Shown here piece after piece: positions 34,408-64,000 of a stretch of 64,000 nucleotides of DNA. A program made the position numbers and the translations under genes. The notes under the pieces were generated by a model. It was not told the DNA's origin, did not search any database, and was given only the letters and a program-made list of their open reading frames with translations. Location: contig OZ320322.1 in assembly GCA_976226885.1 (NCBI GenBank), forward strand, positions 37,076,001-37,140,000. The letters run 5' to 3'. How positions within the stretch are numbered: position 1 is the first letter of the stretch; each line of letters begins with the position of its first letter. This DNA comes from Iphione sp. A-MEVVRFRX5. Lineage: Eukaryota.

Positions 34408-34488
34408 TTGCACCACAATCATATTATGACGAGAAATGATTCTGTTCAATATATGATATACAGGTAGGCACGTTGACTGTGATCTTAC

Positions 34489-34972
34489 CTGTAGTAGTTG
34501 ACAGGTGTGGCTGGCTCTGCGACTGCTGCTGGCGGTGTTTGGATGCTTGTCTGTTCTCCCTCATCCACGGATAGATCTCTGCCTGTTGAGTCTTGACGTT
34601 CTGGGATACAGGTACCAGTCCTCCAGGGCCACCACCCCCTCCCCCTGCTCCTCCTCCTCCTCCCCCTCCTCCACCCGCCCCTCCGGGAGGCATTCCACTG
34701 CATCCAAGGTCCTGCATACATGAAGGGGTAAACTGCTGAGGCGGGTACTCCATAGTTTGACATGTGCCAACGCCAGGGTGCTGGACACCACCTGGGGGGC
34801 CGCCATTCCCACCCTGGAGGAGGCAGGAGGAGCGGGGGGAGGGGCTGTAACCGTCTCCTGTCGACCCATATCCCGGGAGACCACCGTCATAGCCGCCGTA
34901 ACCGTTGTGCTGGTAGAAGCCCGGCGTGTAGGCTTGGCTTTGGTCGTAGTAGCCCTTCTGTGGCATCACCAT
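34489..34972 (-). CDS. Hox3: Hox3 homeobox protein, first coding exon (N-terminus, Gly-rich tract, YPWM hexapeptide)
   Basis: Reads MVMPQKGYYDQSQAY... (Hox3-type MQKxxYYD N-terminus) to AEIYPWMRE (YPWM at 34562-34573). Ends at a canonical donor ACAG|GTAAGA (intron starts 34488, phase 1). Other in-frame ATGs at 35017 and 34966, so the exact start is uncertain. Confidence 0.92.
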
Positions 34973-35236
34973 CTCCCGACCCACGAAGTTTATTTCGTTC
35001 TGGCAAGGCCCCGACATCTCTCGCACTGTTTACATCACTTTTTGACAGTTGCTCCAAGCTCTTGTGGCTCTGTACCGCCCCCCAACACCCCCGAGCCTGT
35101 GCTTGGGTGGGGTATAGCTGGCAGGTACAAGGTCCGGAGGTGTGAAGATAGGGGGTTGTATGGGGGGGACGTATGGCCCCTCCAATGCGAAGAACCTTTC
35201 GTCCCTGGTTCTTGCAGCGACAGCAAGCGTATAAAT
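34973..35236 (-). other. Hox3 5' leader part of the coding exon, preceded by a strong splice acceptor
   Basis: Minus strand ttttccactttctttattttctttccccag|ATTTATACG, with AG at 35238-35237. Implies at least one upstream exon. Confidence 0.7.
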
Positions 35237-58100: not shown

Positions 58101-58488
58101 AGCGACCCAGTAACCCTGGGAACTGACATACGCGCTCCGACTGGTCACAACTGTTTCTATGCCCACAGCTGCTACTGCTGCTAGGGATGTATTAGAAGGA
58201 TAGAAGCATGTGGAAACATTCCTCGCCATAGCAACCAGAGCAGTCCAAGTCCACCCATCAGACAGGCATCCCACCGACACACCCTACCCCCATCCAAATC
58301 TCACCCCCGGCTTCAAGCTTATAGCTGGCGGTGGCCATACAGACAGGGTATCAGGGCTCAGCTCTAATTAACCAACCCCCCAACAACCCCAAACTACAAT
58401 ATCCCTAATGGATCCAGCGCGGACTTTCCACTCATTCCGGTAAGCACCAGACTAATCCCTTCCAGCAAACACCCCCGCCCATCACTAG

Positions 58489-59031
58489 TGTAACACAAAA
58501 GGACGGATTCAACCCAGGTTCTTCGGAATTCTTCTTTATTCTTCCTAGGAGCACATGGTAGTACAGGTACTCTGTGTGGTGGTCAGCTCCCTTCTGGCCA
58601 GGGGCCTTTGTTCTCTGCCCCAGCTCTGTCTCCGGTGCTCTGCGCACACTACCTCGCTGGAGGGGTTCATTTATACTGACCGGGAGTGACGCTAGTCACG
58701 CCACCCGAAGGTTTACATTTCTGGGGGCGTATCTCGCTAGTTGTGGTTGACTACGTTTTCATTTGTTATTGGGCCGTACGCCTCCCGATCAGTTTCATTG
58801 ATACCCCTCGTCAGGTTCCACCTATTGTGTACCTTTGCGCTAAATGTTAATATATGTAAATGAGTATACGCTACGAAAAGATATGTAAATGTAATGGAAG
58901 GGCATTGTCTATCACGTACCTTTTGTACCTGATACTAACGCATATAAATACATATGCTACACACTAAACATAGTGTAAGTGAATAAAACAAAAGGTACTT
59001 ATATACTTCATAAAACACACACTGTGTTACA
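58489..59031 (-). mobile_element. 3' LTR (543 bp)
   Basis: Perfect 9-bp terminal inverted repeats TGTAACACA (58489) and TGTGTTACA (59031). Minus-strand TATAAAT at 58675-58669 and AATAAA at 58540-58535. Directly preceded by the PPT. Confidence 0.88.
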
Positions 59032-59042
59032 GTGCCCTCCCC
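59032..59042 (-). other. Polypurine tract
   Basis: Minus strand GGGGAGGGCAC immediately 5' of the LTR start TGTAAC. Confidence 0.75.
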
Positions 59043-59390
59043 GGGCCGAATCTTTTTTGGGGCCCTTCCAAAATACTACGGGAGCATACCACCTAGTGAC
59101 CACTTGTAGTTTGGTATACAAGTAATGAGACATAGACAAATTCATGGGTATACACTGATAGGAGTACAAAAGAGTATAATTAATATTAGGTTAAATATTT
59201 GTGCACAATAACTGTGATCTCCAACATCATCGTTTCACTCTCAGTCCTGTTATTTCGGTACCGATTCCAATCTCCAAGCTCTGATAAGTCTTTGGTCACA
59301 CTAGTCAGTGTGTTTCACCAATGTTCATGTCAGTTCACGCTTATCACCGTCGTTCAGGAAATGTTCATTTCCCAGCAAACCACTGTGTGC

Positions 59391-61661
59391 TCATCGGCTC
59401 GTCCTCACAGTAGTTCTCATAGCGACACGTCTCAGTTTCTTGGGATGAACAGCATCAGCTGAATCAGAAGAGTCACTGAAAGGTTGTTTGAGCATAGCAG
59501 TCTTATCATCACTATCAGCAGGAACAGTAACATCACCATCAGACAGTATACGAGCAGCAGCATTAGTTAGAGCATGGCTTTTATCGAAAGGTTGAGATAG
59601 TAATACAGTTTGTTCAGTCTCTGGAGAAAATGATATTTCATCATGACGTCTGCCAGTCCTCGCGGGAGACTTGGATGGCTCTTCCTTTACCACGACTTCA
59701 TCCTCCTGCTCCAAAGGCAGGAAGGGTAGCATCTTCTTGACAGCAAATTTGAATAACCACCTTCTTTTCAGGAACATCACAATGATAACCACTAGGATGA
59801 GTAAGATTACACCTGCTATCACAATGTAGGGGACATGAGAGGTTTCAAGATTCATATGGTCCTTTGACCTGGCATTATCTAACATAGAGATGAGAGAATC
59901 GATGGGTTCATCTTGAATTGGAGGGAGTTGGTTTAAGTCAAGTTTAACATCAAAATTGTGATTTTTCATTGGTTGCCAAATGGGTAAGGTTGAAAGATTC
60001 CTTCTAATAGGAGTCCTAATTCGAGTTTCACGTACAACTTCATATTCCAAGCGATCTTCAAAGTATATGGGAAGTTCAAGTTTGTCTGTGATAGCTCTAC
60101 AACCAGACTCAAGGGTAACAATACTGAAAGGAGTTTGAACCATGATACGTTCTTCCAAATCCGTACCAACACAAAGCTTCCTTAGGTAAAACTCTTGGTT
60201 CGTAGCTACTAACCATTGTCCCTTTGAGACATACCTGGCCAACGGTAGTTTCAGTTTATTAGTAACAGTAGTTTTACACAATTCTCTAATCTTATTCAAA
60301 TCTCTTTGGTACAAGGCTAATGTACAATACTTATGGTGGTTCATTTCATATACCGCAGATGTCATTGAGCAAAAGTTTATATCTGGTTTACCACATTCAA
60401 TTTGATCTTCTAATGTCAACACAGTATATTGTTTACCGTCAACACTAACAGCAAAGTTCTTGAACTCTAATTCATATTCAGCAGTCACATTGGATGTTTT
60501 AAAGGGTACAGGGAGGCTAATAGCCTCTTTAACTCGAAACTGTTTCGCCACGTCAAGTAAAGGTATCTCTAGTGTTATTACCAGTTGATCACGCAAGGCC
60601 ATCGTATTAGTCTTTAAGATTGTATAATAATACCAAGGTTTTTCTCTGGGGTCTCGGGGTAGCATTAATTGGGGTGGTAACTCAACTTCTATAGATTTCA
60701 GAACTTGCACCAACTCAGGGGCTGGTAAAAGGTTCGGGGACAGTTTCTTCATGGATAGTTTTGAAACTTTAGCATGTAAGTCTGTAACCAAAGCTGTTTC
60801 TGCAATAATTAAATCTCTCACAATATTAAGGTTGACCTGTGTCTGGGCCTGTGTGATCGTGAACCTTTGTAAGGGGATAATAGCTCCAATGAGGTGTCTA
60901 TAACTCTGTTGCCATGCCTCGACTAAATTTCCCACCTTTTCGATTATCTGATTAATAGCATGACGGTTTTCTTGTACTTCCATTTTGGTCATGTTTATGA
61001 GTGACAGGCTTTTGGAAAGCACATGGCGAATTACTTGTTGTCTTTCTCTTAAGTCATTTACTTCCCTTTGTAAAGCCTTTGTCTCAAAATAGGCTATCCC
61101 ACTAAATATCCCTGCAGCTAAGGAAACAAAACGTTTTGGTCTCACGGGTACACCTTGTCTATTTGCCTGTCGTGATTCCTCTAACTCACTATGTCCTATT
61201 CCTTTTATTTCCTGGAAGTCTAACCAGTTTTTGTCATGAAGCTTTCGTAATGCCACAAGTTCATGTGCCTGAGATCGGGTAATGTTATAGTAGTACATCG
61301 CTTTTAATGAGTCCCCATCGTCAAAACTCGTGTTCGCAGCTTGATAGGCTTGATATTTATATGTTGCATCTTGAAACCTGGAGCTAAAGTAATCATTGGC
61401 CACTTTGGTTATCTGGTCTGCTTCGTCAATGGTCCGGTTGATGTATAAAAAGTAGTTCTCGTATGCCTGTAGGTCAAGCACCAGTCCTACAAGCCATCTG
61501 GATCGAGTAGTATGTATTTCGGCCTTTGACCGGAAGAATACATGCTCAACTCCTTCACGCATGAGGCTCCCATGAGCCAAATGGAGGATGATCAGCAGCA
61601 ACCTAGAGGAACCAAAAGAAAGGTACCTATCAGGACCTTGAGTATGGTTTTCTGGTCGCAT
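59391..61661 (-). CDS. env: Env-like class I viral fusion glycoprotein (F-protein-like)
   Basis: ORF track start at 61682 is GTG; first ATG is 61661. Hydrophobic signal-like LLLIILHLAHG; furin site RPKR (61142-61131) followed by hydrophobic fusion peptide FVSLAAGIFSGIAYF; heptad-rich helix; Cys-rich ectodomain; NxT/S sequons; TM VPYIVIAGVILLILVVIIVMFL then KRR; cytoplasmic tail. Confidence 0.9.
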   Translation of the reverse strand: MRPENHTQGPDRYLSFGSSRLLLIILHLAHGSLMREGVEHVFFRSKAEIHTTRSRWLVGLVLDLQAYENYFLYINRTIDEADQITKVANDYFSSRFQDATYKYQAYQAANTSFDDGDSLKAMYYYNITRSQAHELVALRKLHDKNWLDFQEIKGIGHSELEESRQANRQGVPVRPKRFVSLAAGIFSGIAYFETKALQREVNDLRERQQVIRHVLSKSLSLINMTKMEVQENRHAINQIIEKVGNLVEAWQQSYRHLIGAIIPLQRFTITQAQTQVNLNIVRDLIIAETALVTDLHAKVSKLSMKKLSPNLLPAPELVQVLKSIEVELPPQLMLPRDPREKPWYYYTILKTNTMALRDQLVITLEIPLLDVAKQFRVKEAISLPVPFKTSNVTAEYELEFKNFAVSVDGKQYTVLTLEDQIECGKPDINFCSMTSAVYEMNHHKYCTLALYQRDLNKIRELCKTTVTNKLKLPLARYVSKGQWLVATNQEFYLRKLCVGTDLEERIMVQTPFSIVTLESGCRAITDKLELPIYFEDRLEYEVVRETRIRTPIRRNLSTLPIWQPMKNHNFDVKLDLNQLPPIQDEPIDSLISMLDNARSKDHMNLETSHVPYIVIAGVILLILVVIIVMFLKRRWLFKFAVKKMLPFLPLEQEDEVVVKEEPSKSPARTGRRHDEISFSPETEQTVLLSQPFDKSHALTNAAARILSDGDVTVPADSDDKTAMLKQPFSDSSDSADAVHPKKLRRVAMRTTVRTSR

Positions 61662-61678
61662 ATCACGAGGGTTAATTC

Positions 61679-64000
61679 TCACATCATAGAGGCCAATAAT
61701 TCTAATAATGCTTTTACTTTGTTTGGTTCTTGTTCTGTCTGGTTTGTTAATTGGTTTAAACGTCTAATTTTTGCTGCGCTCGTTTCGCCACTACTGCTGC
61801 TATTCCTTACACGCTTGCTAGTCCCTACCCCTGTTGTAACTGAGGTAGCGGATTCTAATGCATCCATGTCAGATGCTTCGGTTTGACCTACTTCTCCATC
61901 ATCAGCCATTGGCTGTTCTTCCCCCACAAGAGGTTGATCAATGACAGCTCCTCTTGCCTCTACTGGTGGCTCTGGAGGTGGTTGTGGAGCGACCTCTGTC
62001 CGCGTCCCATTTCCGCCACCATACCTTTCTCTCAGCCTTGCCAATGGTATGTAGTCAGCAAGGGGTGAGTCTGAGGATGACTCCTCTAGAACAGTGGTGT
62101 TATCAACATCACTTTCTTCGCTACTGAGGCTTTGCTCACTAGCCTCCATATCTTCGGCCTCTACATCTATGGCCAGCCTGGCCTTTCGTAGTGGCCTTTG
62201 GGTGTCTTCAGGTTTGGGGATCTCCCAATCGAGGTTTGCCTTGCGGAGGTGTACAGCGTGGACCTTGCGCTGTGTACCAGTCAGCATGTTGCGGATAACA
62301 TAATTGACTGGTGTCACCACCTTCATGACCCTGTAGTACGGTTCCCATCTCATGTCCAGCTTACCCGAACGGTCATGCTTAAACACGTACACTGGGTCTC
62401 CTTCTTGTAGATCCGCCTCCTTTGCTTTTCGGTCATGGTATCGTTTTGTACGCTCTTGTGCCTTGCTGTGATGCCTTTTCACAATCACCATGGCTTTGTG
62501 ATGCCTCTCTAGCACATGTTCATGGTGTCCTTCACCCATGTAGCGAGGCCTAGGGCGTAACAAGGTGTCAAGAGGAAGGAGTGGATCACGACCCGACATG
62601 AGGAAGAAGGGAGAATGTTGAGTTGTCTCATGGTTGCAGGTCCTTAAAGCGAGAAGTGCAGAGGGAACCATCAAATCCCAGGATCTGGAATCCTGCATTT
62701 GTTTTGAGGCAATGTCGTTCCAGACTCGATGAACCCTCTCAAGTTTGCCATTGGACTGGGGATGGTATGGGCTAGTCCTGATCCTATATATCTTCATCTT
62801 CTCGCAGATGCTCGATACTATATCGTTTACGAACTCTGTCCCATTATCTGACAGTAGGATCGCAGGACACCCATGTCTCGGTATTATCTCTGATAGTATC
62901 AGGTTAGCCACAGTCTGCGCTGTCTTGTCAGGTACAGCGAAGAACTCAGGCCACCCTGAATACATATCTACAAAAGTGATCAAATACCTATTCCCTTGGT
63001 GTGACGTGGGATAAGGGCCGCAAGTATCAATAGCCAGCTTCTGAAATGGTACTTGCACCAAGTCCATTCTCTGCACTGGCGGGGTCTGTTGCTTCAAGTT
63101 GCGTGAGTTGCATGCAACACATTGGGATACATGTCTCACAACATCTTTATACAGACCTTTCCAATGATACTTTTGTCTAATGCGGTCATAGGTCTTGTCC
63201 ATCCCCATGTGACCTAAATGGTCATGGCACTCTTGAAGCACAACCAGCTTAAGGTGATTCGGTATGACTAGTTTCAAGCTAGGAGGGTCCTCACTAATGT
63301 AGTAAACAACCCCATCTACCACACTGTAGCTAGAACTACTCGTCATTTTACCAATTTGCTTATCCCTGGCTTGCTCTGCCACCATGTCGAGACTGTCTTT
63401 GTTACTCAAACTAGGTAGAGGGTTAGGCCCATCTGAACCCTCTTGTTCTTCCTCATTAGCTTTCAGACTTCTCTGTACATCTACTTGGTCAGTGTTAATA
63501 ACATTGACCTCTACCCCTCTCGGGTACCGGCTAAGGAAATCTGCCTGTTTATTCTGGGGGCCACTTATGTACTCAATCGTACAGTTGTATTCACTCAGCT
63601 CCATGGCCCATTTCTGGACCTTCACGTTTTTAATTTCCGAGCTGAAAAGGAACTGGAGGGGTTTGTGGTCAGTCTTTACCACAAAGGATGCTCCCCATAA
63701 ATATGGTTTAAACTTTTGTATGGCATAGATTATGGCATATGCCTCACGCTCAATAATCGGCCATCTTTTCTGGGTAGGATTGAGCTTTTGCGACACAAAG
63801 TGTACAGCACGTGGCCCCTCTTCATGGTCTTGGACCAACACTGCACCAACCGAAACATCTGAAGCATCTGTATAGATGGTAAAGGGTTTTGTCATGTCCG
63901 GAAATGCAAGAATAGGATCTGATGAGAGTGCATCCTTTAGTGTCTGGAATGCCTCTTGGCAGGCGGCTGTCCAGACAAACTCATCAGTTTTTCTTGTGAG
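61679..64000 (-). CDS. pol: Pol polyprotein C-terminal part: RT connection, RNase H, integrase (HHCC, DD35E, GPY/F-like) and acidic tail
   Basis: Frame is open to the window edge (LTRKTDEFVWTAACQEAFQTLK...). RNase H motifs TDAS, EREAYA, TDHKPL, ADFLSR. Integrase CHDHLGH..CVAC, IDTCGP, SDNGTEF, SNGKLERVHR, WEPYYRV. Confidence 0.95.
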   Translation of the reverse strand, partial: LTRKTDEFVWTAACQEAFQTLKDALSSDPILAFPDMTKPFTIYTDASDVSVGAVLVQDHEEGPRAVHFVSQKLNPTQKRWPIIEREAYAIIYAIQKFKPYLWGASFVVKTDHKPLQFLFSSEIKNVKVQKWAMELSEYNCTIEYISGPQNKQADFLSRYPRGVEVNVINTDQVDVQRSLKANEEEQEGSDGPNPLPSLSNKDSLDMVAEQARDKQIGKMTSSSSYSVVDGVVYYISEDPPSLKLVIPNHLKLVVLQECHDHLGHMGMDKTYDRIRQKYHWKGLYKDVVRHVSQCVACNSRNLKQQTPPVQRMDLVQVPFQKLAIDTCGPYPTSHQGNRYLITFVDMYSGWPEFFAVPDKTAQTVANLILSEIIPRHGCPAILLSDNGTEFVNDIVSSICEKMKIYRIRTSPYHPQSNGKLERVHRVWNDIASKQMQDSRSWDLMVPSALLALRTCNHETTQHSPFFLMSGRDPLLPLDTLLRPRPRYMGEGHHEHVLERHHKAMVIVKRHHSKAQERTKRYHDRKAKEADLQEGDPVYVFKHDRSGKLDMRWEPYYRVMKVVTPVNYVIRNMLTGTQRKVHAVHLRKANLDWEIPKPEDTQRPLRKARLAIDVEAEDMEASEQSLSSEESDVDNTTVLEESSSDSPLADYIPLARLRERYGGGNGTRTEVAPQPPPEPPVEARGAVIDQPLVGEEQPMADDGEVGQTEASDMDALESATSVTTGVGTSKRVRNSSSSGETSAAKIRRLNQLTNQTEQEPNKVKALLELLASMM

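Follow-up and report, generated by a model that had tools for sequence, protein, structure and literature searches.

A complete, recently inserted Ty3/gypsy element with an intact predicted F-type env in the Hox cluster of Iphione sp.

Within the Hox cluster of Iphione sp., we identified a complete, recent Ty3/gypsy element with an intact env that is predicted to encode an F-type fusogen, and this element likely spreads by enveloped particles that pass from somatic cells into the germ line. An intact and recent element of this type had been proposed in an initial annotation of the DNA, and the proposal held, as gag, pol, and env are open, the LTRs differ at a single position, and an F fold is predicted for Env. 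Intact young F-type errantiviruses as a kind are already published (PMC13524379; Chary and Hayashi, eLife 2026). The novelty of this case concerns the expression of env, including genomic evidence for an env splice in a sister family.

Structure of the element

The analysed window is a stretch of 64,000 nucleotides (C22:37076001-37140000) that covers the 3' 5.5 kb (58489-64000) of an element of 9,637 bp on the minus strand, the 5' LTR of which lies beyond the window at C22:37143583-37144125. The 3' LTR (58489-59031, minus strand) has a length of 543 bp with TG...CA ends and was delimited by its sequence and by comparison with the 5' LTR; its perfect termini (TGTAACAC...GTGTTACA) had been recognized correctly beforehand. 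LTR divergence, which the initial annotation had marked for checking, amounts to 1 mismatch over 543 bases, indicating that the element is young and was recently inserted. On the same strand, the 3' LTR contains a TATAAA-like box (58670-58675) and an AATAAA (58535-58540), both as consensus matches only. The polypurine tract GGGGAGGG (59032-59045, minus strand), followed by 3 nt up to the LTR, was found in the sequence and is retained in the sister families. The PBS is located 11 nt behind the 5' LTR, and 18 of 18 bases are complementary to the 3' end plus CCA of the host tRNA-His(GTG), an end with 13 genomic matches, two of which were checked with ARAGORN. We count this long primer spacer among the added value of the element; several of the His-primed elements listed in PMC13524379 likewise have their PBS 8-21 nt behind the LTR.

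The left flank ACTAG had been suggested as the target site duplication, but this 5-mer is not repeated at the other end. The duplication is the 4-mer CTAG (58485-58488), with its partner beyond the 5' LTR (C22:37144126-37144129), and a 4-bp duplication was also seen in 17 of the 20 family copies for which the two ends were covered. A 5-bp duplication was ruled out, as it was found in 2 of 32 copies, one of them within a G run. The hallmarks of Metaviridae, namely paired LTRs, PBS, polypurine tract, and a short duplication, are all present, and GAG, POL, and ENV are all intact within one element, which is how PMC13524379 defines errantiviruses.

Upstream of the window, the sequence of the whole element (L001) has an open gag frame of 352 aa (stop to stop) with three CCHC knuckles, and pol, which is also open, encodes 1379 aa in the order PR-RT-RH-IN by Pfam. 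The 3' part of pol (61679-64000, minus strand) encodes RNase H, a 'mini' bridge domain, an H2C2 zinc finger, and the integrase core in an open frame, in agreement with the uninterrupted RNase H-integrase region noted earlier; PR and RT are encoded outside the window. The catalytic motifs DTG (protease), YLDD (RT), and D-D-E (integrase) are kept, and the disabling mutations that the initial annotation had considered in the upstream gag and RT were not found. Among solved structures, RT matched Ty3 RT best (E 1e-98). A Bel/Pao element with env (roo-like) was ruled out on the basis of the Pfam families RT_RNaseH and Integrase_H2C2, which are of the Ty3/gypsy type, the complete lack of Pao families, and the nearness of RT to Ty3. 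In a structural model of pol residues 607-906, the bridge between RNase H and integrase appears as a helix (206-219) and three short strands (225-228, 231-237, and 240-245) with pLDDT 70-84, and thus as a 'mini' domain rather than a pseudo-RNase H. A mini domain of an N-terminal helix and three short strands marks the ancient errantiviruses (PMC13524379, section 7).

The pol frame is in the -1 frame relative to gag, and the overlap carries GGGAAAC, followed by a hairpin of -24.1 kcal/mol (z -3.3) whose stability was reached by none of 200 shuffles. The slippery site and the start of the hairpin are retained in 20 of 22 family copies and in 4 of 11 sister copies. With retroviral examples as the precedent, we predict that this combination is a -1 frameshift signal for Gag-Pol.

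The predicted fold of Env

The env ORF (59391-61763, minus strand), for which an F-type class I fusogen is predicted, overlaps the pol frame. It comprises 790 aa from stop to stop and 756 aa from the first ATG at 61661, not 757-763 aa as given in the initial annotation; the spliced product would have 741 aa by arithmetic from the predicted junction. The motifs that the initial annotation had quoted are present. The only furin site, RPKR (61131-61142, minus strand; aa 174-177 of the 756-aa frame) is a basic site that precedes a hydrophobic peptide across the homologues, and the predicted fusion peptide FVSLAAGIFSGIAYF (61086-61130, minus strand) directly follows it, with a hydropathy peak at aa 178 and support from the alignment of homologues. 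The motif LSPNLLPAPEL, a signal peptide that was seen by hydropathy and alignment, seven sequons, and a single transmembrane helix (approximately aa 611-633; 59763-59831, minus strand), behind which a cytoplasmic tail of about 120 aa is modelled with low confidence, complete the picture. The Cys-rich domain of the earlier description was right in its position after the furin site but amounts to six Cys, all of them in F1, with none in F2. Because F2 contains no Cys, a disulfide between F1 and F2 is impossible in this Env. In viral F proteins, F1 and F2 are linked.

The Env sequence alone gave no Pfam match and no PDB sequence match. Among 8,000 scored candidates, 36 were homologues of Env, and Baculo_F (PF12259) was reached through homologues only, being matched by 15 of 29 aligned sequences (28 homologues and the query). 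A profile search retrieved PDB 9w4c/9w4d, a 'fusion protein', with E 2e-6; no paper on 9w4c, 9w4d, or 9w4e was found by title. AlphaFold was used to model the Env monomer (pLDDT 65.7, pTM 0.44), and a fusion-protein fold, the presence of which had been a point to check, was recovered with Foldseek, in the BFVD, and by comparison with Nipah F. In the Foldseek search against the PDB, RSV F ranked first (E 5e-9), and all 45 matches listed were pneumo- or paramyxovirus F proteins, with RSV, HMPV, NDV, hPIV3, and henipavirus F among the structural matches. The BFVD matches included baculovirus F (E 5.5e-19) and chu-like glycoproteins. With VIA, 290 residues were aligned to Nipah F at an rmsd of 7.9 and a Z of 10.6; for a model rich in helices, a Z of about 10 counts as moderate. 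Global TM-scores were 0.2-0.3 and rmsd values high, as expected for the monomer of a two-state trimer; as the TM-scores are low, our claim is limited to the fold family and does not extend to a precise model. In this sense, Env is predicted to fold like the class I F fusogens of RSV, Nipah virus, and baculoviruses. It has the class I fusogen fold and the order of parts in common with baculovirus F (PF12259) and pneumo-/paramyxovirus F according to the model, whereas identity in structural alignments is 8-15% and the Cys in F2 are missing. In IMG/VR viral contigs, 39 pattern matches yielded no confirmed relative.

Expression of env

Behind the PBS, an ATG precedes a GTGAGT donor by 14 nt, with the donor boundary at C22:37143485/6. 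A predicted acceptor, consisting of a pyrimidine tract and TAG (61603-61619, minus strand), would start the env exon at 61602 (C22:37137602), immediately ahead of the hydrophobic signal-peptide core. Donor and acceptor are both in phase 2, and the arrangement is well conserved within the family, with the ATG-donor pair kept in 20 of 21 leaders found and the acceptor in 20 of 20 copies scored. In five lineages, the ATG-to-donor lengths are 14 nt (the window's own), 11 or 32, 17 or 23, 14, and 17 or 23 nt, all of which equal 2 modulo 3, and the acceptors are in phase 2. The ATG-donor stretch is missing from the sister copy L049. In two sister lineages, in-frame stops directly precede the signal peptide, and an ATG is lacking for more than 100 codons; these lineages therefore cannot make Env without splicing or recoding. 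In the window family, Env may also be translated from unspliced RNA, as an in-frame ATG is located 20 codons 5' of the acceptor. In a distant family (about 29% env identity), an acceptor-like site was seen, but no matching donor in the first 700 nt.

Direct evidence of env splicing in one sister family, which has about 80% env identity to the window family, comes from the genomic locus L045. This locus of 3,758 bp consists of an LTR (515 bp), PBS, leader, env, and LTR, is flanked by the duplication CCAC, and is colinear with the full-length copy L053 except for a 5.86-kb gap that extends from the GT donor to the AG acceptor. As L045 is joined exactly at the GT/AG sites, it shows that the sister family produced spliced env RNA, which was then reverse-transcribed and inserted into the genome. 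We rejected a chance deletion as the origin of L045, since both ends coincide with GT/AG sites that had been predicted beforehand from the window family, and the junction is in frame. For the window's own family, we predict spliced env with the same sites and phase.

Of the 52 env loci examined, L045 alone was a spliced copy; the 25 loci and 22 exact leader matches of the window family yielded none. An extra leader match at C2:102.13 Mb was rejected as a spliced copy because it is a 3'-truncated unspliced one, and L015 was rejected because its junction connects gag with late pol, not the leader with env. The acceptor of the sister family is AAG, versus the usual YAG, and the L045 junction has 2 nt of microhomology.

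In Drosophila, Env-F of ZAM/Beagle, gypsy, and Idefix is translated from a spliced subgenomic RNA, and in ZAM and Beagle a short peptide is encoded by the first exon, which lies upstream of gag (PMC12992720), as is predicted for the window element. The spliced copy L045 thus extends the ZAM-like leader-exon design to the 'ancient' group. The available main text of PMC13524379 contains no mention of splicing, subgenomic RNA, frameshift, or Hox, and at the level of titles and abstracts, no published genomic copy of a spliced env outside insects was found.

Copies, relatives, and mode of spread

The copy number, a further point of the initial annotation, turned out to be at least 21-22 near-identical copies in the genome, with at least 21 full-length env matches at 96% identity or more and at least 22 exact leader matches. 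Identity to the window copy is 96.1-97.9% for the other 21 copies of the family, so none reaches the >98% across three ORFs at which PMC13524379 counts an element as multi-copy; that rule is a copy count and not a criterion of membership. All three frames have full length in 7 of 22 copies examined, the LTRs are identical in 4 of 20 copies, and LTR differences range from 0 to 13 of about 543 bases, with one copy with a broken 3' LTR set aside.

Differences from the window copy are mostly silent. For env, dN/dS was 0.03-0.19 (median 0.076; 18 open copies of 21), and for pol 0.07-0.15 (median 0.092; 14 of 21 copies), where all pairs use the window copy as reference and are thus not independent, and copies with stops are excluded. 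These ratios indicate that purifying selection acts on env as strongly as on pol. The argument that env is needed between insertions is known from work on vertebrate endogenous retroviruses, and our data can be read in the same way. Such selection shows that env mattered and says nothing about which cells it enters.

The novelty for spiralians that the initial annotation had implied did not stand, as 74 annelid env-carrying elements (148 word matches in the supplement, two per row) and 23 elements with the same tRNA-His 12-mer, found in annelids, molluscs, and barnacles, among others, are already contained in PMC13524379. This survey describes 1,512 such elements, including F-type 'ancient errantiviruses' in Annelida, Mollusca, and Thecostraca, and assigns ENV_F in 29 of 30 annelid rows examined. 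With this group, our element shares the GAG-POL-ENV order, Ty3/gypsy pol, multiple copies, the tRNA-His 12-mer, an F-type env with furin site and fusion peptide, and RNase H plus 'mini' domain; judged by these descriptions, the window family probably belongs to the His_GUG-primed ancient errantiviruses. The host spread of the His_GUG rows suggests clade A5 (Thecostraca, Annelida, Mollusca). A 543-bp LTR occurred in none of the 17 His_GUG rows examined out of the 23 counted, and env or envelope is not mentioned in the available text of PMC8556966 on polychaete LTR clades. Drosophila errantiviruses differ in having a duplicated pseudo-RNase H bridge and mostly Ser, Lys, or Leu primers (PMC13524379, sections 5 and 7), whereas in the window element the bridge is a mini domain, the primer is tRNA-His, and gag carries CCHC knuckles.

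In the proposed life cycle, full-length RNA would be transcribed from the 5' LTR, and Gag would be translated, with the predicted frameshift at GGGAAAC and the hairpin giving Gag-Pol. A second RNA would be spliced from the 14-nt ATG exon to the acceptor before the signal peptide and yield Env; after furin cleavage, Env would serve as a putative trimeric fusogen, the monomer fold being predicted. Host tRNA-His would then prime reverse transcription, and integrase would insert the DNA with the 4-bp duplication that is seen at the ends. Infection of the germ line from somatic cells is the functional model for Drosophila errantiviruses (PMC12992720).

A movement inside germ cells only, with env as a passenger or in a role other than entry (receptor interference, budding), is in our view unlikely. 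It would accord with section 11 of PMC13524379, according to which the transmission mechanism is not known outside Drosophila, and with L015, in which an internal deletion removed most of pol and which yet has a 4-bp duplication, suggesting that copies may be moved in trans. However, env is as constrained as pol, sister families keep 79-86% env residue identity while dS is saturated, and the furin site, the fusion peptide, and the phase of the splice sites are preserved. A still-circulating exogenous virus that re-enters the germ line from other individuals or species would fit copies that are young by their LTRs and yet 2-4% from the window copy, mostly by silent changes, because of which many source lineages must have been active; homologous env with 42-64% local identity also occurs on short contigs. 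This origin is nevertheless very improbable, as the same genome also houses five or more sister lineages and one distant lineage, which fits long residence, and as annelid clades are host-concordant in PMC13524379. We keep to a likely spread in which enveloped particles pass from somatic cells into the germ line, and the window family is possibly infectious, with the selection on env in support.

The location within a Hox cluster was assigned correctly in the initial annotation: the region C22 36.95-38.39 Mb (1.44 Mb) contains 10 homeoboxes, all of the same strand. Their sequences fit what we take, from known signatures, to be Hox1-5, Lox5, Antp, Lox4, Lox2, and Post2, a gene set that marks the host as a lophotrochozoan, presumably an annelid. 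The presumed Hox3-type homeobox is at 24566-24736 (minus strand), and the likely first coding exon of Hox3 with YPWM is at 34427-35029 (minus strand). The same set of Hox genes is named for Capitella in bioRxiv 10.64898/2026.05.18.725834. The element is inserted in unique DNA in the 283-kb gap between Hox3 and Hox4, on the same strand and with its 3' LTR 23.5 kb upstream of the YPWM exon. This arrangement, in which the 3' LTR points toward Hox3, together with the description of annelid Hox clusters as one regulatory domain (bioRxiv 10.64898/2026.05.18.725834), could speak for a copy kept as a Hox3 regulator, to which we give hardly any credence: with LTRs one base apart, the element is too young for conserved co-option. 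Moreover, 1 of 84 env matches falls into the cluster versus about 0.1 expected (0.12% of the genome), and as the window was chosen afterwards, chance suffices. Most likely, the insertion is a chance landing, and its position is a curiosity unless it affects Hox3. At the level of titles and abstracts, no LTR elements within annelid Hox clusters were found.

It is quite doubtful that this non-insect errantivirus family persists as an infectious enveloped virus of a marine invertebrate and is transmitted from animal to animal, beyond its spread inside the gonad. If true, the whole life cycle of an errantivirus would be written in the genome, with a spliced env RNA that was packaged and integrated, a selected env, and copies with identical LTRs. 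How non-insect errantiviruses express and use env is left open by the survey in PMC13524379, and the genome answers part of this question without RNA data. L045 fixes the env splice junction and places the making and reverse transcription of env RNA in a cell with access to the germ line, and the selection on env, equal to that on pol, suggests that cell entry is part of replication.

Hox cluster and other homeobox loci

A homeobox scan of the Iphione sp. assembly (G000; contigs denoted C plus number) detected a Hox cluster of 10 genes, ordered and on one strand, over 1.44 Mb (G000:C22:36.95-38.39 Mb). From paralogue signatures, we take the genes to be Hox1-5, Lox5, Antp, Lox4, Lox2, and Post2. 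No Post1-like box was present among the 10 homeoboxes of this cluster, which we infer to be of the lophotrochozoan, annelid-like type. The scan also revealed an open frame of 2,139 aa that contains four or more homeoboxes (G000:C1:18955286-18958543) and three close homeoboxes in tandem (G000:C13:13024302-13027752).

Related lineages and primer-site spacing

In rows 22-84 of the env match list, the same genome contained at least four sister lineages at about 78-85% env identity, as well as a distant family at about 29%. The His primer site and the LTR termini are common to these and the window family, and several of them have an open env and near-identical LTRs.

The distance from the LTR to the primer site is usually 0-3 nt, whereas it is longer in the window element (11 nt to the tRNA-His site, L001:9273-9283) and all its relatives, where other families have 8, 9, 13, or 15 nt. 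In the table of an errantivirus survey, several His_GUG rows have 8-21 nt (PMC13524379). With such a long spacer, integrase would need to remove a long overhang. In the copy L009, the 8 first spacer bases directly follow the 3' LTR in place of a clean target-site duplication (G000:C2:5691320-5691327), as if an untrimmed cDNA end had been integrated.

Incomplete elements with env, and a possible viral counterpart

The env model matched, at rank 9 in BFVD, an uncharacterised 801-aa Abalone herpesvirus protein (E 1e-16, TM about 0.33), which may be an F-type protein of a mollusc herpesvirus.

The copy L015 (G000:C22:28401493-28407485; 5,993 bp) lacks most of pol, with an open env and a 4-bp target-site duplication, and arose either by mobilisation in trans or by deletion after insertion. 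In a sister family, the 3,758-bp element L045/L046 (G000:C11, about 98.395-98.399 Mb, minus strand) consists of LTR, primer site, leader, env, and LTR. The junction between the leader and the open env frame coincides exactly with the predicted splice sites, the LTRs differ at 2 of 515 positions, and the target-site duplication is 4 bp. This element is a spliced env RNA of the sister family that was copied and integrated.
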